A stretch of DNA of 64,000 nucleotides from a bacterium (lineage in GTDB: Bacteria > Patescibacteriota > Minisyncoccia > CAIUEV01). The translations under genes were made by a program, and so were the position numbers. Every line of letters begins with the position of its first letter. Within the stretch, counting starts at the first letter, position 1. The DNA lies in contig JAJXZR010000015.1 in assembly GCA_021779915.1 (NCBI GenBank), positions 4,521 to 68,520 of the forward strand, in the 5' to 3' direction. Below the pieces are notes generated by a model that was not told the origin of the DNA, did no database searches, and worked only from the letters and a program-made list of their open reading frames with translations. Shown here piece after piece: positions 10,632-52,146 of this stretch.

Positions 10632-10844
10632 TGTCATCCCGGGCTTGACCCGGGATCCAGTTAGTCTTATTAATTATTCTAATTGTTCTAATTAACCTAA
10701 TTGTTCTAAACAAAATCACAAGAACCAATTTTTTAAAAAATTTATTTATTGATACTTGGTGCTTTTTTAGAATAATTAGTATAATTAGGTCAATTAGAGT
10801 AATTTTACGTTCTCCTGGATCCCGGGTCAAGCCCGGGATGACAC
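10632..10844. mobile_element. MITE-like nested palindromic element, subtype A (copy 2)
   Basis: tgtcatcccgggcttgacccgggatccag ... cctggatcccgggtcaagcccgggatgacac. About 85% identical to copy 1, including the internal inverted repeat. Confidence 0.65.
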
Positions 10845-11038
10845 GTAATTGTTAATTTTCTCTGTTTAAAACATTATAAAATTTGTGAATTGAAAATTGT
10901 TTGTCGCCTAGTCGACCCGCCTCTGGAGGGAAAATTGGAAATTAGAAATTGAAAATTTTGTCCTGTTCAGTTGTTCAATAATTCTTACACTTTCATTAAA
11001 ATATGATAAATAAAACTCGTCAAATTTTTAAATTCCAT

Positions 11039-24211: not shown

Positions 24212-24236
24212 AAAAAGAGCGGGAACCCGCTCTTTT
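24212..24236. terminator. Bidirectional rho-independent terminator
   Basis: aaaaagagcgggaacccgctctttt hairpin between convergent genes. Confidence 0.55.
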
Positions 24237-24480
24237 AAAATTTCTTGTAAGTTTTTTCTGATCTGCGTTCGATTGCTAGAACAAATATTTTTTTATTTTG
24301 GTCTTTCTTAAAAATAATTCGAATATTTCCTTTTCTTATTCTAAAAATATCTTGATTGCCTCTCAATCTTTTTATATCAAGACCGAAGTAAGCATTATTT
24401 TTTATCAAGACCAGGATTTTTCTTACTTGGATTTTTTCCTTCGAATTCAATTTCTGCAGAGCTTTAGTTATTTTATCCAT
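24235..24480 (-). CDS. RelE/ParE-family type II toxin
   Basis: 81 aa. ...DIFRIRKGNIRIIFKKDQNKKIFVLAIERRSEKTY matches the RelE pattern (YRLVY.ID...V.V..I..R....Y). Confidence 0.6.
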   Translation of the reverse strand: MDKITKALQKLNSKEKIQVRKILVLIKNNAYFGLDIKRLRGNQDIFRIRKGNIRIIFKKDQNKKIFVLAIERRSEKTYKKF

Positions 24481-24482
24481 AA

Positions 24483-24713
24483 TTAAAGTCGGGATAAAAG
24501 ATCATCTATTTCCACTCCGCCTTTCTGAATTTTGGTAAAATCCAAAACTTCTTCCCACTGCTCCTCGGAAGGGGGACTGATTTTAAAAATAGGTTTTAAG
24601 TGTCTGAGCACAAGAAAAGATTCTCCTTTTGAAACCCTTTTTACATATTTTTCAGTATTCTCACGAAGATCTCTAAGTCCAACAACATTGTTCATTCTTT
24701 TTATGTTAATCAT
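24483..24713 (-). CDS. Phd/YefM-like antitoxin
   Basis: 76 aa. VGLRDLRENTEKYVKRVSKGESFLVLRHLKPIFKI. Separated from the toxin by a 2-nt gap. Confidence 0.55.
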   Translation of the reverse strand: MINIKRMNNVVGLRDLRENTEKYVKRVSKGESFLVLRHLKPIFKISPPSEEQWEEVLDFTKIQKGGVEIDDLLSRL

Positions 24714-24717
24714 TAGT

Positions 24718-25932
24718 TTAACAAAAGATTAACATATTTTTGTAAGCTGTCAAAAAAACGAGGAGTTTAGTGGCAAGTAAAAAGTTGCAAATTACAAAAA
24801 TTTTTCTTTCCACTTTTAGCTTGCTACTTGCAACTAATTTCCCCACTATCTTCCTTCTCAATCTAAACGTATTCGCCTGTTCAAACATTCCATAATAAGA
24901 ACAAAAACCGCAGAAAGCCTTTCTTTTTTGTTGTGCTGAAATTTCTCCAAGTCTTGAAATCTTTATCCATTCTTCCAGCTTTTTATAAGCGTTTCCCTTG
25001 GTTCGATTTTTTATATACACCCTGTAAGGCAAAATGATTCGACCAAGAAACATCACTCCCTTGCTGTAGTGTTGAAGATAAAATTTTTTTCGATGGAGGT
25101 GAAGGAATAGATTGTTGCTGAGATATTCATCCAGAACAGGGAAAAATAGTTTTAGAAAATCCTTGTCTTCGTGAACAAACAGAAGATCGTCGACATATCG
25201 ACCGTAATATTTACATCCCAGAATATTTTTAATGAAATGATCAAAATCATTGAGATAAATGTTGGCAAAAAGTTGGGAGGTCAGGTTTCCGATTGGCAAG
25301 CCTCTGTCTTTTTCTGAAAAAAACAAGCTTTTTGATTTGGGAAGGCCAACCCAGTTTTCCTTTCTTCCTTTAACGACACAGTTTTTGGTTGGGTCGTTGA
25401 AAAGGACTTTTCGTGTAAGCCAGAGGACCAGTTCTTTGTCAAAACCAATCCTGAATTCAAATTTTTTAAGAATTTTCTCAATTTTTTCAAAAAGAATGTT
25501 CTTGTCGATTGACATAAAATAGCCTGAGATGTCGAGTTTCAGAATGTAGCAGTTCTGTTGATAATTTTTTGAGCAGGAACGGATAAAATGCTCCGCTCTT
25601 TTTCCACCACAAGAAGTCCCTCTACCGAAACGGCAACTGTAACTGTCGTTTATAAAAATCCTTTCACAAAGGGGATTGAGATAGTTGAAAATCAAATGGT
25701 GGACAATTCGGTCACGGAAATCACCGGCAAAAATTTCTCTTTTGACCGGAGAGAAAGAAACAAAACAAATGCTTCGGGAAATCTCATATTTCCGACTAAC
25801 AATTTCCTTGTAAAGTCGAAAAAGTTCCTTTTCATAATTAAGTTCAAACCTTATGGCGCTTGCAGTTTTTCTCTTGTGCTTCCGCGCATCGAAGTAAGCT
25901 TGGAAAAGATCGAGGAGGAGTTGGGGAGGCAT
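24718..25932 (-). CDS. Diversity-generating retroelement (DGR) reverse transcriptase
   Basis: RT motif 3 KLDISGYFMSID, motif 4 GLPIGNLTSQLFANIYL (DGR-specific IGxxxSQ in place of QGxxxSP), motif 5 GRYVDDLLFV, motif 2 SCRFGRGT. The likely true start is MPPQ at 25932; the ORF-track start at 25971 lies inside an octamer repeat. Confidence 0.85.
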   Translation of the reverse strand: MPPQLLLDLFQAYFDARKHKRKTASAIRFELNYEKELFRLYKEIVSRKYEISRSICFVSFSPVKREIFAGDFRDRIVHHLIFNYLNPLCERIFINDSYSCRFGRGTSCGGKRAEHFIRSCSKNYQQNCYILKLDISGYFMSIDKNILFEKIEKILKKFEFRIGFDKELVLWLTRKVLFNDPTKNCVVKGRKENWVGLPKSKSLFFSEKDRGLPIGNLTSQLFANIYLNDFDHFIKNILGCKYYGRYVDDLLFVHEDKDFLKLFFPVLDEYLSNNLFLHLHRKKFYLQHYSKGVMFLGRIILPYRVYIKNRTKGNAYKKLEEWIKISRLGEISAQQKRKAFCGFCSYYGMFEQANTFRLRRKIVGKLVASSKLKVERKIFVICNFLLATKLLVFLTAYKNMLIFC

Positions 25933-26105
25933 AGATAGATGAGTAGCAAGTAGGAAAGTAGCAAGTAGCAAGAATTATGAGAGTTGCAAGTTGCAAGTTG
26001 CAAGTTGCAAGTTGCAAGAAAAAATTCTTGTTACTTATTACTTGTTACTTTTTCTCTTGCTACTTGTTACTTGTTACTTGCCACTTGTCATACTTGCTAC
26101 TAATT
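25933..26105. repeat. Octamer tandem-repeat array (GTAGCAAG/GTTGCAAG x ~9 followed by CTTGTTAC/CTTGCTAC x ~8) forming an imperfect long hairpin
   Basis: agtagcaagtaggaaagtagcaagtagcaag...gttgcaag x5 ... cttgttacttattacttgttac...cttgctacttgttacttgttacttgccacttg. Lies between the RT start and the TR. Confidence 0.6.
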
Positions 26106-26143
26106 TCCGGGCTCCTCCCCTTACGGTGAGGAAGCATTTTTGT

Positions 26144-26326
26144 CAGTGCTTGAGGCAACGAACCGAAAAGCCGTTCGCCTTCGAATTCAGGTTCCGATTG
26201 ACCGTGGCGTTACTCGAATTCAGATTGCGATTCCATGCGGACGTACCACTGGGGGAAGACGACCAAAAGTTGGCGTTCGTCCCGAGATTGGCAAAGGAGC
26301 CATCGGTATTGCGGTTGCCGGCTAGC
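26144..26326 (-). other. DGR template repeat (TR)
   Basis: 183 bp, about 88% identical to 27047-27229. In coding sense every non-synonymous mismatch lies at an A of an AAC/AAT (Asn) codon in this copy. Confidence 0.85.
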
Positions 26327-26581
26327 GCTATAATAATCATTAAACTATTTACCCTTTGCCAAAGGCAAAAAATAAACGAGACCTTGCTGGGAAAGACCTC
26401 CATACCTCGCTTAAAGTTCGTCTAAACGAGAAGATTATTGGACTGACGAAATGGCACTCTTACCTGCGCCGTAGCAACAAGCAACTCCGGCCCGAACGAG
26501 TAACAAGTAAAGAAAGTTGCAAGTTACAAGAAGAAAGTAGTAAGTTGCAAGAATTATGAGAGTTGCAAGAAAAAATTCTTG

Positions 26582-26926
26582 TCACTTGCTACTCGTTCTC
26601 CATCCTGTCAACTGTTTGCTCACTCTCTCCAACTTCAAATTCAACGTGACGAACTTGTCTATATCGATCAGTTTGAGATCATTGGATAATCGCAGGAATA
26701 ATCTGATTGTTTCGACGTTTTCCCGCGCCTTTTGAATGTTTTCTTTTCTTTTTTCAAAAGAGCTGTTGGCTCGATAGATGTTCACGATCATCTCAATCAT
26801 TTCTTTCTTCATACTCTCTCCCAGGGTGAATTTGTATTCCCGAGAGAAGTTTCTGATGAATTTGAACAAATCCAGCAGAAGCTCATAACTGTCGTGGTAA
26901 ACTGGAAGATCGCTGGAAAGGGACAT
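26582..26926 (-). CDS. avd: DGR accessory variability determinant (Avd-like four-helix-bundle protein)
   Basis: 114 aa, basic, predicted all-helical. Sits between the target/VR and the TR/RT, as in canonical DGR cassettes. Confidence 0.65.
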   Translation of the reverse strand: MSLSSDLPVYHDSYELLLDLFKFIRNFSREYKFTLGESMKKEMIEMIVNIYRANSSFEKRKENIQKARENVETIRLFLRLSNDLKLIDIDKFVTLNLKLERVSKQLTGWRTSSK

Positions 26927-27007
26927 GGGGGGGAGTTACAAGTTGTAAGTAAAAAGTGGCAAGATTTTTTTCTTGCAACTTACTACTTGTAACTTGTAAC
27001 TCCCCCC
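26927..27007. repeat. GC-clamped hairpin (ggggggagttacaagttgtaag...cttgtaacttgtaactcccccc) immediately 3' of the VR
   Basis: Arms of about 35 nt built from GYWRCAAG octamers and closed by a G7/C7 clamp. Lies between the target stop (27046) and the avd start. Confidence 0.55.
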
Positions 27008-27045
27008 TCATTTTTAAAGAGTCAAAGAGTCAAAGAGTCAAAGAG

Positions 27046-29250
27046 TCAGTCCTTGAGGCAACGGACAGAAAAGCCGTACGCCTTCGAATTCAGGGTCCGA
27101 TAGACCGTGGCGTTGCTCGAATTCAGATCGCGATGCCATGCAGACGTACCACTGGGAGAGGAAGACCAAAAGTAGGCGTTCGTCCCGAGAAGGGCAAACG
27201 AGCCATCGGTATTGCGGTAGCCGGCTAGCAGGCCAGTAAAGTTAGAAGTTCCTCCTGACTTCAATTTGGTGCCGGCAGTGGAACAATCCCAAGTTCCGCT
27301 TCGGTTGGCATCGCAGGTTTGACCGGTGTCTTTCAAATAATTTTCCAGTTCGTACTGCTGGGCGTCGGTCGGAATATGCCAGCTCGTGGGACAGATGCCT
27401 TGAGCTCCGGGGGTTGTGGAATAGGCCATGGCTTCATCCCACTGGTAAAGGCCGCCATAGGTGTTGCAATTGTTGGTATCGTTGCTATAGCACCATTTCT
27501 CGACAGTGCCGTTGTTGGTTGGCATCGTAGAACCACTGGCAAGCATCGTGCCGAGTTTAAGGTTTTGTTTCATCCAGCATTGGTTGCCGATAAGGACAGT
27601 GTCATAGACATTGTTTTCGGCGTCCAACACCTGACTGACACCGCAAACAAAATCAGAGACCACGCAGTTGCCTGATCCATCGCATCGTTTGTTGAAACCG
27701 CAAGTTTGGGAATTGTTGATGTTGGTCCAGTCGCCCACTTGACCGGAAGACGAGACGGTTTTTTGCTGGCAATAATAGTCGCCCACTCGGCCATCGCCAT
27801 TTCTGAAGTTGGTAAAGTTGCTGGCATTGACCAATGTCGCACTAATATTGGTAGCGTTGACCGTAGTCGCACCAACGTTTCCGGTCGTCGTGATATTGCC
27901 GCTTCCCAAACTGAAATTGCCCGATCCGTCCGTGACGGGAATGATTGAATTTCCGCCAGTAGCAGAAGTCTCTTTATCATCCAATTTATCGGCATTGAGG
28001 TTGGTAACTTTGGTGGTGGAAGCGACGGTGAGCGGGGAAGTACCGGTTGCCACAGTTGAAGTCAGGGTGGAAGCGGAAACAGAACTGGCAGCGATGGAAC
28101 CGGTGGTGGAAATGGAAATGTCAGATTTTAAGTCTGATCCGGTGATGGTTCCGTCCGCAATGGAAGCGGAATTGACGCTGGCAGTTTCAATGATGCCAGA
28201 AGTGTTGACGGAAAAAACTGAATTGTCACTGTTATTGGTAATTTTGAGTGGTGAAGCCGATTGGGAAGAAGCCATCTTGAGAATGGTTACCACGGTTGGA
28301 GCCTGGTAGGCAACGGTTTGACTGGAAGCTGGATCGGTGTGGATGGTTTCATTGGTGAGTTCTGAGATAGCCGTTTGGGTGTTAGTAGAAGCAATTTGAG
28401 TGGTCGGCGTGAAAGAAATGGCAGTAGCGGGATGAGAGGAAGCTGCATCTCGGTTTTGGAGATCATTATGATTGACGGTTGCTACATTAGCCACTTTATG
28501 CCAGGTGTTGTCAGAGTTGTCACAGCGGTAAATCCAGTTTTCATCTTTCACAAGCCGGGATTGCCCGTCAGATCCACTGTTACAATCCGGCAAATCGGAA
28601 TGGGAAGTGACCGGATCTTTCCATTTGAGATTGTTGATGTTGGTGGAAAGCTGGTTGTCCACATAGGCTTTGTTAGCGGCGTCAGTGTCGCTGGTGGGAG
28701 TTGCGATGTTGGTGATTTTGTTGGTTTCCAGGGATAAGGGTTTGGAGAGTTTAAAATTCTCACTGCCTTTGTCATAGGTAAGGGAACGGGCAGAGGAACC
28801 GAAAAGAAGGTTGATGTCACTTCCTGTTTGCCCAATAGTGAAGGTGTTTTGGTTGGTACCGGAATCAGTGTTCTGGTCATGAATTTGGGAGATGTTTTTG
28901 TTGCCTAAAGCGATGTTTGAATCGTTATTGTCTACTAGTTCTCCCAGTTTGTTTTTTTCGGTGTTGGTGGGATAATCGGGAATGTTAAGTTTACTTCTAT
29001 CAATACTGGCATCTGAGGCAATATCTTCGTTTTTAATCGTTCCGTTTTTGATTTTGTCTCCGGTGATAAGATCGTCCGCAATCACCCTGAGGTTTGCGAT
29101 GGCTCCGTCCTTGAGTTGCGCATCCCCAATGGACTGAGTAACAATCCTAATTTTCTGTTTAACAGCCTTTCTAAGGGAAGCATTGGAAAAAGAAGTGACG
29201 GCTAGAACGGTGAGGAGGGAAATGAGGAAGGTGGTTTTTGGTTTGGACAT
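27046..29250 (-). CDS. DGR target protein: secreted Ser/Thr-rich protein with C-terminal FISUMP-like (C-type-lectin fold) variable domain
   Basis: Signal peptide MSKPKTTFLISLLTVLAVTSFSNASL. C-terminal NQCWMKQNL...YGGLYQWDEA...CPTSWHIPT...LLAGYRNTDGSF..FWSSS...GFSVRCLKD, with the VR covering the last ~60 codons. GC-richer than flanking DNA. Overlapping ORFs in other frames are rejected. Confidence 0.85.
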   Translation of the reverse strand: MSKPKTTFLISLLTVLAVTSFSNASLRKAVKQKIRIVTQSIGDAQLKDGAIANLRVIADDLITGDKIKNGTIKNEDIASDASIDRSKLNIPDYPTNTEKNKLGELVDNNDSNIALGNKNISQIHDQNTDSGTNQNTFTIGQTGSDINLLFGSSARSLTYDKGSENFKLSKPLSLETNKITNIATPTSDTDAANKAYVDNQLSTNINNLKWKDPVTSHSDLPDCNSGSDGQSRLVKDENWIYRCDNSDNTWHKVANVATVNHNDLQNRDAASSHPATAISFTPTTQIASTNTQTAISELTNETIHTDPASSQTVAYQAPTVVTILKMASSQSASPLKITNNSDNSVFSVNTSGIIETASVNSASIADGTITGSDLKSDISISTTGSIAASSVSASTLTSTVATGTSPLTVASTTKVTNLNADKLDDKETSATGGNSIIPVTDGSGNFSLGSGNITTTGNVGATTVNATNISATLVNASNFTNFRNGDGRVGDYYCQQKTVSSSGQVGDWTNINNSQTCGFNKRCDGSGNCVVSDFVCGVSQVLDAENNVYDTVLIGNQCWMKQNLKLGTMLASGSTMPTNNGTVEKWCYSNDTNNCNTYGGLYQWDEAMAYSTTPGAQGICPTSWHIPTDAQQYELENYLKDTGQTCDANRSGTWDCSTAGTKLKSGGTSNFTGLLAGYRNTDGSFALLGTNAYFWSSSPSGTSAWHRDLNSSNATVYRTLNSKAYGFSVRCLKD
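27047..27229 (-). other. DGR variable repeat (VR) at the 3' end of the target gene
   Basis: The TR-encoded Asn positions are replaced by Tyr, Thr, Tyr, Asp, His, Tyr, Leu and Tyr. Non-A differences are all synonymous, except in the extreme 3' (IMH-like) end. Confidence 0.85.
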
Positions 29251-29372
29251 GGGTTAGTTTAAAATTTCCAATTTCTAATTTTCAATTTTTTCGCCCGAGG
29301 CGAGTCGCCTATGGAGACAAACAATTTTCAATGACAGAATAATTCAATACTTCAAGTAATATCCGACTTATG

Positions 29373-29537
29373 TGTCATCCTCGGCGTGTCGACCGGGGAT
29401 CCAGGAGGATAATATTAGTCTAATAAAATGTCGGCTTGTTTAGTTTTCTGTAAATGCACATAGAAATAACACTCTATTAGTCTAACCTGGATTCCCGCCG
29501 GAGTTTATCCTCGTGAAAACGGGGACAGGAATGACAC
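29373..29537. mobile_element. MITE-like element, subtype B (right terminus degenerate)
   Basis: gtgtcatcctcggcgtgtcgaccggggatccaggaggataatattag ... cctggattcccgccgg...aatgacac. Preceded by a CAATTTTC block (29263-29340). Confidence 0.55.
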
Positions 29538-29616: not shown

Positions 29617-30234
29617 CTATCTACTCCACATAATAAGACTTCTTGTCCCATACATCTTCATCGTGTTGCTATTGAAATATCCAAGAGCCTCCGCTTTGGT
29701 GAGGGGATTGTTTTGTTGTTTTATTGGTTTGTGTATCGTGTCGGTGTTGTCTTCGAGGTTGACAGTGACCGCTCCTTTTTTGGTTTGAATGATGAAGGTA
29801 TCTCCATCGTCAGAGACATCTCCCATGGAACCTTGAATTTTGGTATAACAAATGGAAAGGTCGGTGAGTTTTTTGGCGAAATACACGCCTTCCGGCGAGA
29901 CGTTCTTGTCCGACACCACCGTCTTGATTGAGTCCCCGATTTGAACTTCGTTTTCAGTGAGCCTTCCGCCCGAACTGCGGAGGAAATTGGAGGAATAATA
30001 ATTGATAATGTACGTTGACCCAAAAACATTACCGCCCTTTTTATTTTTTTTATCCAAACTTTTAATCGTAACAAGGCTATTATCCGTATCAATAGCCAAA
30101 ACCGTCCCAATTATGGTGTGGGCGTGCGATTTGGCGAGGACAGAGGAGGTATTAGTGAAAAGTAACAAGTAACAAGTTGCAAGAAAAAAAGTAGCAAGAA
30201 TTTTCTTGTTACCCATCATTTTTCCTCTTGCCAC
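29617..30234 (-). CDS. Secreted hypothetical protein
   Basis: Signal peptide partly encoded by the octamer repeat (LATFFLATCYLLLF). The likely ATG start is MMGNKK at 30219. Confidence 0.5.
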   Translation of the reverse strand: MARGKMMGNKKILATFFLATCYLLLFTNTSSVLAKSHAHTIIGTVLAIDTDNSLVTIKSLDKKNKKGGNVFGSTYIINYYSSNFLRSSGGRLTENEVQIGDSIKTVVSDKNVSPEGVYFAKKLTDLSICYTKIQGSMGDVSDDGDTFIIQTKKGAVTVNLEDNTDTIHKPIKQQNNPLTKAEALGYFNSNTMKMYGTRSLIMWSR

Positions 30235-30313
30235 TCGAGAGAGAGAGAGAGAGAGTAGTGCATGTTTTTGTAAGAATATTTTTTAAATTATGGTTCATGG
30301 GGATTTGTATTAA

Positions 30314-30585
30314 TTACAAGTTACAAGCTACAAGCCACAAGCTACAAGCTACAAGCTACAAGCTACAAGCTGCAAGAAGACCCTTGCTACTTGCTACTTG
30401 CTACTTGCTACTTGCTACTTGCTACTTGCTACTTGCTACTATTTTAAATTAAAAATTGGGGTTGTCAAAAAAACGATAAGTTTAGTATCAAGTAAAAAGT
30501 TACAAGAAGAAAGTAGCAAGTTACAGGTAACAAGTTACAAGAAAATTCTTACCACTTGCAACTTGCCACTTTTTACTTGCTACTT
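30314..30585. repeat. Large octamer tandem-repeat arrays (GCTACAAG x ~8; CTTGCTAC x ~9; then mixed GTWRCAAG units)
   Basis: ttacaagttacaagctacaag...ctacaagctgcaag / cttgctacttgctac... Same family as 25933-26105 and 26927-27007. Confidence 0.6.
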
Positions 30586-31845: not shown

Positions 31846-32000
31846 TTAAGTTTAATTTGAAATTCTGATTACGTAGAATTAGATTACCTTTTTTTGGTTT
31901 TGACTAGGAAAATTAAGAAAATTTTCAATTTCTAATTTTCAATTTTCAAACAATTTTCAATTTATTAATTTCCTAATTTTATAAACAATACTATTCCAGT

Positions 32001-32152
32001 GTGTCATCCCGGGCTTGACCCGGGATCCAGGAGGATAATCTTAGCTTAATAAAATCTTAATTTGTCTAGTTTTTTAGCAATACGCATTAAAATAACATTC
32101 TGTTAGTCTAATTTTGTTTCCTGGATCCCGGCTCGGGGGCCGGGATGACACA
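32001..32152. mobile_element. MITE-like element, subtype B
   Basis: gtgtcatcccgggcttgacccgggatccaggaggataatcttagc ... cctggatcccggctcgggggccgggatgacac. Flanked on both sides by CAATTTTC/GAAAATTG blocks. Confidence 0.65.
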
Positions 32153-32233
32153 CAAGACGGATATTGTTTGAAACATTGAATCATTCCATCATTGAAAATT
32201 GTTTGAAAATTGTGAATTGAAAATTGAAAATTT

Positions 32234-35661: not shown

Positions 35662-35883
35662 TATCATCCCGGGTTTGACCCGGGATCCAGAAGGATATAA
35701 AATTGCTCTAATTAACCTAATTATACTAATTAACCTAAAAAAGCACCAAATACCAAACAATAAAAAAATAAATCTTAGAAATTAGTTTTTGGGATTTTGT
35801 TTAGAATAATTAGGTCAATTAGAGTAATTAGAATAATTAATGAGTCTAACCTGGATCCCCGGTCGACACGCCGGGGATGACAC
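35662..35883. mobile_element. MITE-like element, subtype A (copy 3)
   Basis: atcatcccgggtttgacccgggatccag ... cctggatccccggtcgacacgccggggatgacac. The internal inverted repeat is identical in design to the copies at 1152, 10632 and 46711. Confidence 0.65.
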
Positions 35884-35944
35884 GAGAGAAGCGAATTTTA
35901 ATCTTTTTTTATTTGAAAATTGGAAATTGGAAATTCTATCTACT

Positions 35945-40886: not shown

Positions 40887-40940
40887 TTGGTTATGGTTAA
40901 TTGATTAATTTTCAATTTCCAATTTTTAAACAAAAAATAC

Positions 40941-41038
40941 GTGTCATCCTCGGCGTGTCGACCGGGGATCCAGAAAAGTAATATTTTATTAGTCTAATAT
41001 AATTCTCCTGGATCCTCGCTTTCGCAAAGATGACACAC
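40941..41038. mobile_element. MITE-like element, subtype C (short, ~98 bp)
   Basis: gtgtcatcctcggcgtgtcgaccggggatccagaaaagtaatattttattagtctaatataattctcctggatcctcgctttcgcaaagatgacacac. Confidence 0.65.
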
Positions 41039-42395: not shown

Positions 42396-42491
42396 GTGTC
42401 ATCCTTGCGAAAGCGAGGATCCAGGAGAATTATATTAGACTAATAAAATATTACTTTCCTGGATCCCCGGTCGACACGCCGAGGATGACAC
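42396..42491. mobile_element. MITE-like element, subtype C, inverted copy
   Basis: Exact reverse complement (few mismatches) of 40941-41038. The adjacent about 80 bp (aattagataaacaatatcttctag / ctagaagatattgtttatctaatt) is also mirrored. Confidence 0.65.
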
Positions 42492-42558
42492 ATATTTTTT
42501 GTTTAAAACATTTGAAAATTAATCAATTAAAAATTGTTTGAAAATTGGAAATTGGAAA

Positions 42559-45985: not shown

Positions 45986-46118
45986 AAATGACGAATTACT
46001 AATGACGAATGTCGAATCAATGACGAAATTCAAAAATCAAAATATTTTAATCTTCGGATCCTAGATTTGATTCGACATTCGTCATTAGTAATTCGTCATT
46101 TATTCGTCATTCATCATT
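45986..46118. repeat. AATGACGAA-unit inverted repeat between the sigma and anti-sigma genes
   Basis: aatgacgaattactaatgacgaatgtcgaatcaatgacgaa ... ttgattcgacattcgtcattagtaattcgtcatttattcgtcatt. Same family as 51979-52124. Confidence 0.55.
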
Positions 46119-46692: not shown

Positions 46693-46710
46693 GAAAAGTT
46701 TTATTAATAT

Positions 46711-46929
46711 GTGTCATCCCCGGCGTGTCGACCGGGGATCCAGGAGAGTGGAAAATTACTCTAATTAACCTAATTATACTAATTGACCTAAAAAAGCACC
46801 AAATACCAATAAATAAATTTTTTTAAATTGGTTCTTGGGATTTTGTTTAGAATAATTAGGTTAATTAGAGTAATTAGAATAATTGGTGAGACTAACCTGG
46901 ATCCCCTGTCGACACGCCGGGGATGACAC
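46711..46929. mobile_element. MITE-like element, subtype A (copy 4)
   Basis: gtgtcatccccggcgtgtcgaccggggatccaggagagtg ... cctggatcccctgtcgacacgccggggatgacac. Confidence 0.65.
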
Positions 46930-46946
46930 AAAGAAAACCCATCAAT

Positions 46947-50303: not shown

Positions 50304-50376
50304 TGTGATTAAGTTAAAAAGGTTGAAAGAAAATTAGACTTGTATTCTTCACGTCTCTTGCGTTCCGCTTTTTCCT

Positions 50377-50530
50377 GTGCCATCCTCGGCGTGTCGACCG
50401 GGGATCCAGGAGGGTAGTATTAATCTAATAGAATGTTATTATGTTTAGTTTATTAACGATACGCACTAGGCGATAATTCTATCAGTCTAATCCTATTTCC
50501 TGGATCCCCGCTCGGGGGTGGGGATGACAC
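50377..50530. mobile_element. MITE-like element, subtype B
   Basis: gtgccatcctcggcgtgtcgaccggggatccaggagggtagtattaatc ... cctggatccccgctcgggggtggggatgacac. Confidence 0.6.
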
Positions 50531-51978: not shown

Positions 51979-52124
51979 GGAATGACGAAATCCGAATGAC
52001 GAATGACAAATGACAAATCAATCACAAATATCGAATATCAAAAAAATTTTGAGATTTGCCTGCCTGCCGGTAGGCAGGGATTTTAGATTTGATTTGTCAT
52101 TCGTCATTTGAAATTTGTCATTTA
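51979..52124. repeat. AATGACGAA/AATGACAAA-unit inverted repeat with central gcctgcctgccggtaggcaggga
   Basis: Same design as 45986-46118. Confidence 0.55.
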
Positions 52125-52146
52125 AATTATATCTGAGCGGATAATA

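Follow-up and report, generated by a model that had tools for sequence, protein, structure and literature searches.

Does a diversity-generating retroelement (DGR) that still carries all of its parts also still diversify its target? This question is raised by a cassette in a 64,000-nucleotide stretch of DNA from a member of the Patescibacteriota (contig JAJXZR010000015.1 of assembly GCA_021779915.1, positions 4,521 to 68,520 of the forward strand). We refer to the whole stretch as the window, and all coordinates are window positions unless another locus is named. A prediction made from the sequence alone had described the cassette as a complete and working retroelement with a target gene ending in a variable repeat (VR), the accessory gene avd, a template repeat (TR) and a reverse transcriptase (RT) gene. 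We find that the element is a genuine and structurally complete DGR of the Patescibacteria type. However, its TR has probably not been homed into the present VR since the two repeats diverged, and we favor a history in which the cassette is a mosaic or its target has been orphaned.

The cassette is a complete DGR

All four parts are encoded on the minus strand between 24718 and 29250 in the predicted textbook order target(VR)-avd-TR-RT, as borne out by the open reading frames (ORFs) and a repeat analysis. The order avd-TR-RT is the same in related loci. The two repeats are an imperfect pair: the VR forms the 3′ end of the target ORF, and the non-coding TR precedes the RT start by 210 nt. Domain, structural and comparative evidence supports the description as a complete retroelement: the cassette combines an RT of the DGR clade, a TR/VR pair, an enrichment of adenine changes in AAY codons, an Avd protein and the display of variable residues on a C-type-lectin fold. 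This kind of DGR is already known and is the commonest in Patescibacteria, where metagenomes contain thousands of close relatives.

The RT carries both motifs that had been read from its translation, IGNLTSQ (within IGNLTSQLFAN) and YVDD. Its best relative of solved structure is bRT of Bordetella phage BPP-1 (PDB 8ub7, E 1.2e-26), followed by a group II intron RT at 1e-6; group II intron, defense-associated (DRT) and retron RTs are weaker PDB matches by many orders of magnitude. In a scan against NCBIfam, which holds no model for DGR RTs, the group II, retron and DRT models all remained far below their cut-offs. The closest genome relatives of the RT adjoin adenine-biased TR/VR pairs. The PDB ranking, the motifs and these neighboring pairs consistently point to membership of the DGR clade. 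Of 7,988 database homologues, the few that are named come from lineages of the Patescibacteria group (Moranbacteria, Paceibacterota, Staskawiczbacteria), and the RT of the closest species-representative genome is ∼62–63% identical. All residues that are invariant among twelve family members are kept, differences being confined to the naturally variable C-terminal tail, and dN/dS against the closest homologue is 0.065.

The avd product, predicted as Avd-like, passes the cut-off of the Pfam model bAvd (56 bits, cut-off 40). It also matches the NCBIfam model for DGR Avd proteins, NF033474, with E 2.7e-15, although its 56.6 bits stay below the cut-off of 80. Full-length matches with 46–70% identity are found in related cassettes.

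The target had been described as a secreted protein of 734 amino acids with a C-terminal FISUMP-type fold, and a hydrophobic, signal-like N-terminal segment and FISUMP domain matches are indeed present. Residues 552–733 match Pfam Fib_succ_major (PF09603, E 1.6e-31), and the protein scores above the cut-off of NCBIfam TIGR02145. An AlphaFold model of the C-terminal 214 residues (61 sequences) reaches a mean pLDDT of 95.4, in line with the proposed display of the variable residues by a C-type-lectin fold; a Foldseek search of the model against the PDB gave no informative match. In the secondary-structure string of the model, the positions templated by AAY codons fall on alternate residues of two adjacent strands, and judged from this string only, we infer that they would lie on one face of the sheet.

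The N-terminal ∼540 amino acids (27631-29250) form a Ser/Thr/Asn-rich stalk without a Pfam domain. Other proteins share this stalk at 53–58% identity in their N-terminal parts, but their C-terminal domain is of the FGE-sulfatase type and not FISUMP. A stalk common to both kinds of proteins indicates that domains were probably swapped among DGR targets. The cluster of the target protein at 90% identity contains a single member sequence.

Half of the TR/VR differences lie at adenines

TR and VR form a direct repeat of 185 nt without gaps. The predicted repeat is therefore real, but the 183 bp (26144-26326) and ∼88% identity originally given have to be replaced by 185 nt and 90.3%. Among the 18 mismatches, 9 lie at TR adenines and 9 elsewhere. 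All nine adenine mismatches are found at positions 1 or 2 of AAY codons for Asn, and 8 of the 13 AAY codons are altered. Our codon table agrees with the earlier reading that eight TR Asn codons correspond to Tyr, Leu, Tyr, His, Asp, Tyr, Thr and Tyr in the VR. The VR thus bears the footprint of past homing.

The remaining mismatches do not fit the clean, adenine-only signature that had been proposed. Eight of them are synonymous changes at third positions, located at C, G or T. The ninth, from C to G, affects the last codon and turns His (CAC) in the TR into Asp (GAC) in the VR, so the statement that every amino-acid difference maps to a TR adenine does not hold. If substitutions were random, at least eight synonymous changes among these nine would be expected with P = 4e-4. 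Synonymous divergence (dS) between TR and VR is 0.205, and the TR keeps all scaffold codons as well as its 13 AAY codons. The tabulation of mismatches by TR base, suggested together with the original prediction, shows an adenine enrichment (9 of 18 mismatches on 41 adenines of 185 nt; binomial P = 0.009), but half of the mismatches are non-adenine. The enrichment is real but modest.

We applied the same TR/VR procedure to related cassettes and set apart loci with many paralogous repeats. Relatives with a single TR/VR pair have adenine fractions of 0.76–1.0, except for locus L033 with 0.56. The value of 0.50 in the window is the lowest of all single-pair loci.

How does this value relate to accepted definitions of DGRs? 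The program myDGR tolerates non-adenine substitutions up to 30% (PMC6602519), and according to Roux et al. (2021; PMC8144416) an adenine share of 75% or more among the mismatches is almost universal, with only seven seemingly genuine exceptional clusters. With 50%, the pair in the window falls below this operational rule of at least 70–75% of mismatches at adenines and would be rejected by myDGR. We read this as a statement about the history of the TR/VR pair and not about the kind of element, because Roux et al. decide on membership from the RT clade and admit a few genuine DGRs with less than 75% (PMC8144416).

The TR has probably not rewritten the VR recently

Six of the synonymous non-adenine mismatches are internal, with adenine changes further out on both sides. 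In retrohoming, template positions other than adenine are copied faithfully, and the VR is converted from its 3′ end inward. Based on this rule and on the position of the six mismatches, no full-length homing from TR to VR appears to have occurred since the non-adenine mismatches arose. As any retrohoming would erase non-adenine differences, the TR would not have rewritten the VR over a divergence of dS about 0.2.

To polarize the nine non-adenine differences, outgroups were also compared. The TR of locus L071 agrees with the window TR at seven of the nine, as expected from a TR that is 89% identical, and the VR of locus L069 agrees with the window VR at three of the nine, which is about chance. 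This comparison was uninformative.

Exact-protein look-ups provided a cross-sample set of five assemblies: that of the window, NCBI contig JAKBET010000001.1 (GCA_021833695.1), to which the window is almost identical, ENA ERZ27236874, and the Logan assemblies SRR17201898 and SRR13178628. The DNA of VR, TR, avd and RT is 100% identical across all five, which include three other read sets. Over up to 14 kb, the assemblies differ by one single-nucleotide polymorphism and by the number of 7-nt units in the heptad arrays described below. At the level of consensus sequences, the VR is fixed across all sampled populations, and ongoing diversification is not seen in them. A degenerate pattern scan for TR and VR in metagenome contigs of the Joint Genome Institute (JGI) gave no match and recovered no population variants. 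The view of the cassette as a working diversifier is thus not supported, given the synonymous non-adenine mismatches, the low adenine fraction and a VR that is identical at the nucleotide level in five assemblies.

Table 1. Coordinates of the DGR parts and of associated sequence elements in the window.
Feature	Coordinates	Strand	Description
Target gene	27046-29250	–	734 aa; signal-like N-terminus, long Ser/Thr/Asn-rich stalk, C-terminal FISUMP (C-type-lectin fold) domain
VR	27045-27229	–	Covers the final 61 target codons, the stop and 1 nt; 90.3% identical to the TR over 185 nt without gaps
Tandem 8-nt motif (TGACTCTT) x4	27016-27048	–	From the VR stop codon; Tandem Repeats Finder (TRF) 4.1 copies, 100% match
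G/C-clamped long hairpin, heptad-array family	26928-27007	–	Between VR and avd start; RNA –50.1 kcal/mol, z –8.4; DNA –28.8 kcal/mol, z –7.1
avd	26582-26926	–	114-aa accessory gene; Pfam bAvd, E 5.4e-15
Heptad-array hairpin	26494-26598	–	Overlaps avd stop; RNA –36.2 kcal/mol, z –6.6; repeat families D2, D4
RT-7-like structured RNA	26326-26495	–	Directly 5′ of TR; presumed 5′ part of the DGR RNA; Rfam RF03028
TR	26142-26326	–	13 AAY codons in VR frame; 89% identical to TR of related locus L071
Heptad inverted array	25942-26101	–	TRF period 7, ∼10–11 copies per arm; –40.5 kcal/mol, z –6.1
RT	24718-25932	–	DGR reverse transcriptase, 404 aa, intact; Pfam RVT_1

Candidate cis elements of the cassette

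Directly 5′ of the TR, 166 nt match the Rfam motif RT-7 (RF03028) over the full model length, with 40.2 bits and E 7e-7, which does not reach the gathering score of 116.8. Loci L013 and L003 likewise give full-length matches below the threshold. With 40–55 bits compared with 116.8, the elements of all three loci are diverged relatives rather than curated members of the motif. With a covariance model built from these three loci, 35 loci were found to contain the element. It is always on the strand of the RT and, wherever a TR could be placed, ends at the 5′ edge of the TR. In the resulting alignment, which was fitted to the model and therefore favors the structure, 89.9% of the cells are paired. 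Controls with slid partners are far lower (42–50%). Compensatory changes occur in 34 of the 37 pairs, and the copy in the window retains 33 of the 37. For RT motifs besides RT-10, a function in DGRs was no more than a speculation of Weinberg et al. (2017; PMC5737381). In the open-access literature that we searched, no paper names RT-7 or its placement at the 5′ end of the TR. The RT-7-like RNA is presumably the 5′ part of the DGR RNA.

A second candidate element follows the VR. Of 24 related loci, at least 15 carry tandem repeats of the TTTGACTAT type in the interval from the VR stop to the avd start, and none were found in the stretches examined after the TR. The 8-nt motif may act in recognition on the target side or belong to the leader of avd.

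The third group of elements consists of arrays of 7-nt units (CAAGTWR/CTTGCWA, with a CTTG/CAAG core), which are inverted and form long hairpins after the VR, after avd and after the TR. To our knowledge, an initiation of mutagenic homing (IMH) site is not defined for this DGR clade. Regarding an IMH with an inverted repeat at the 3′ end of the VR, the window shows a very stable hairpin that begins 41 nt past the stop codon, and the repeat family of this hairpin also follows avd and the TR. Further heptad arrays are found at 24783-24835, where the hairpin at the 3′ end of the RT gene is weak (z –1.5), and at 30160-30200, 30315-30440 and 30484-30585. A pattern scan of the 64 kb detected the CTTG/CAAG heptad unit nowhere outside the DGR arrays and 30160-30585. 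The copy number of the arrays varies between otherwise identical assemblies, with a loss of 7 nt at 25982-25988 (in the ENA assembly, L074) and gains of 14 nt at 30365 and 7 nt at 30382. The arrays are the fastest-changing sequence of the locus.

Analogous arrays with the unit CTTGAAR occur in two distant DGR cassettes of the Peregrinibacteria group (L016:3692-5945 and L009:1396-3927). There, they follow the VR and the TR, surround avd and precede the RT-7-like RNA, and a (CT)n run comes next, just upstream of the RT. In the window, a (GA)9.5 run (30237-30255) lies beside the heptad arrays. A second family of inverted heptad arrays, with the unit GAATGAC/GTCATTC and unrelated in sequence to the DGR arrays, is found at 45987-46118 and 51980-52128. 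Because of this different family elsewhere in the window, heptad arrays may be a general intergenic feature of these genomes. Two further candidates were discarded: a small hairpin just past the TR is not significant (z –1.1), and matches of the heptad hairpins to plant microRNA families in Rfam are generic long-hairpin matches far below the gathering scores.

Mechanism and history of the cassette

By analogy with the Bordetella phage system, a single RNA would extend from the RT-7-like element through the TR and the downstream spacer. A complex of RT and Avd would copy this RNA with misincorporation opposite adenines, and the VR that ends the gene of the secreted C-type-lectin-fold protein would be replaced by the resulting cDNA.

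If the TR no longer reaches the VR, what has happened to the cassette? RT, Avd, TR and all conserved cis elements appear to be still under constraint, and a mosaic cassette or an orphaned target is therefore the most likely explanation, preferred over simple long-term decay. In a mosaic, the side with RT and TR and the side with avd and target would come from related but different DGR lineages that recombined at the heptad hairpin arrays. In case of an orphaned target, the VR seen here would no longer be addressed, and the machinery would serve an unseen target elsewhere in the genome.

Some observations hint at a mosaic. GC content at third codon positions (GC3) is 0.54 in the target and 0.565 in avd (26582-29250), compared with 0.38 in the RT gene (24718-25932) and 0.35–0.40 in flanking housekeeping genes. 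This break, the heptad hairpins at the module borders, the stalk shared with proteins carrying FGE-type domains and the rearranged locus L069 all support the idea. L069 (6001-9460 of that locus, GCA_021779255.1) contains the closest relative of the target, with 79% amino-acid identity, and an avd that is 70% identical, in a different genomic context. Its cassette is rearranged: only residues 3–39 of the RT remain, located between target and avd, a TR is missing and a structured-looking repeat of 115 nt is present in two copies. L069 is a DGR that has fallen apart with its target ORF intact.

Regarding a target elsewhere, the 64-kb window contains no second TR-like copy, and the protein database no near-identical C-terminal domain of the target, the best match being 66% identical. 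The P0176/P0186/P0225 cluster was considered as a second target and rejected, since it belongs to another organism, has ∼70% DNA identity to the TR and shows no further match to the window.

Several points weigh against this interpretation. The GC3 of avd is calculated from 114 codons only. In L069, a high GC3 is likewise found in the target but not in avd; it may therefore be a trait of the target family and not a sign of transfer. Other VRs were looked for in 64 kb of the genome only, and the orphaned-target version rests on a locus that has not been seen. The identity of the VR was determined from consensus sequences, which allow for variants at low frequency, and the five assemblies are different runs of unknown sampling and undocumented independence. 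Finally, the last 35 nt contain three of the non-adenine mismatches, which could reflect a distinction of the IMH/IMH* type, although relatives show none.

A more general but tentative proposal, to which we give limited credence, is that DGR cassettes of Patescibacteria are modular. The modules would be the target with VR and post-VR 8-nt motif, avd, the RT-7-like RNA with the TR, and the RT, and the heptad arrays between them, hypermutable by slippage of units, could serve as recombination joints. The cassette in the window would then be a chimera after such a swap, with TR and VR from different lineages, in which homing has not yet taken place or is impossible.

Alternatively, the cassette could be a decaying relic that lost its DGR function long ago and whose VR is a frozen, selected ligand-binding surface. 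The VR shows only synonymous drift, L069 has kept target and avd while losing the TR and most of the RT, and DGRs of clade 2, that is, of the candidate phyla radiation (CPR), are less active than average (PMC8144416). However, stop codons and losses of invariant residues would be expected in an RT gene of 1.2 kb at a neutral dS of 0.2, and neither is observed. In a TR out of use, non-synonymous positions would have changed as well, yet they are unchanged here, and the RT-7-like RNA and the post-VR motif are likewise intact. Because the RT (by its dN/dS), the TR and the cis elements are all preserved, long-term decay fits poorly and we regard it as unlikely.

The original prediction of an actively diversifying DGR, with the TR now being copied into the VR, can draw on the intact parts and conserved cis elements and on the eight diversified AAY codons. 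Moreover, strong purifying selection can mask activity in single samples (Roux et al. 2021; PMC8144416). Against it stand the six internal synonymous mismatches, which are incompatible with full-length homing since their origin, the VR shared by five assemblies and an adenine fraction below that of almost all single-pair relatives; we consider present activity improbable. That the TR is no DGR template at all but a leftover duplicate of the target 3′ end, as its retained reading frame and stop codon and the ordinary synonymous nature of half of the differences might suggest, is scarcely credible, given that the copy occupies exactly the site, between the RT-7-like RNA and the RT, at which over 20 related cassettes have their TR, has Asn AAY at all 13 variable positions and differs in the mutable zone by amino-acid changes that are all at adenines.

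Surroundings of the cassette

The target gene had been noted to be GC-richer than its surroundings, which agrees with values of 48.4% for the target and 37.6% for the window, and the predicted spurious ORFs overlapping it are present in the ORF list. The cassette had also been placed between a toxin-antitoxin pair and a miniature inverted-repeat transposable element (MITE). A MITE-like repeat does lie upstream of the target, but the toxin-antitoxin matches remain below the Pfam gathering scores. They concern two small ORFs on the minus strand (24235-24713), matching ParE_toxin with 16.9 bits and PhdYeFM_antitox with 24.2 bits; the assignment is plausible but weak. The MITE-like copy at 29251-29430, directly upstream of the target, belongs to a dispersed family whose pieces are 74–97% identical and share a conserved GC-rich core. 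Partial copies are located at 1321-1489, 10793-10959, 31918-32205, 35850-35938, 40938-41018, 42414-42494, 46708-46930 and 50376-50451.

Comparison with known systems

As a DGR alone, the locus adds little, since its type is abundant in Patescibacteria. Its value is that it separates "complete" from "active": non-adenine synonymous mismatches date the last homing, while the machinery appears still constrained. In addition, the orphan Rfam motif RT-7 is placed at the 5′ edge of the TR across a whole DGR clade with support from covariation, which makes it a candidate for the 5′ portion of a DGR RNA beyond the phage model. The post-VR 8-nt motif and the heptad hairpin arrays are two unreported candidate cis elements with possible roles in target recognition and module exchange.

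Among known systems, the cassette is most like the Patescibacteria (CPR) "clade 2" DGRs of Roux et al. (2021; PMC8144416), with which it shares the order target(VR)-avd-TR-RT, a TR/VR length of ∼185–190 nt and a C-terminal FISUMP/TIGR02145 domain; its RT is 57–85% identical to thousands of metagenomic RTs. It differs from Patescibacteria DGRs in its adenine fraction (0.50 versus 0.76–1.0 in most single-pair relatives), in the heptad hairpin arrays at each module border, and in an unusually long target of 734 amino acids whose stalk is common with FGE-type proteins. The Treponema denticola DGR variable protein TvpA (PDB 2y3c) has 13% sequence identity to the target, and no PDB entry matches the target at the sequence level. 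In comparison with the DGR of Bordetella phage BPP-1 (Mtd, Avd, TR, bRT), which is found in a phage context, the cassette is cellular and carries the RT-7-like element 5′ of the TR. A further difference from BPP-1 concerns the 3′ ends of VR and TR, which are identical in relatives of the window cassette, so that no IMH/IMH* distinction is evident there.

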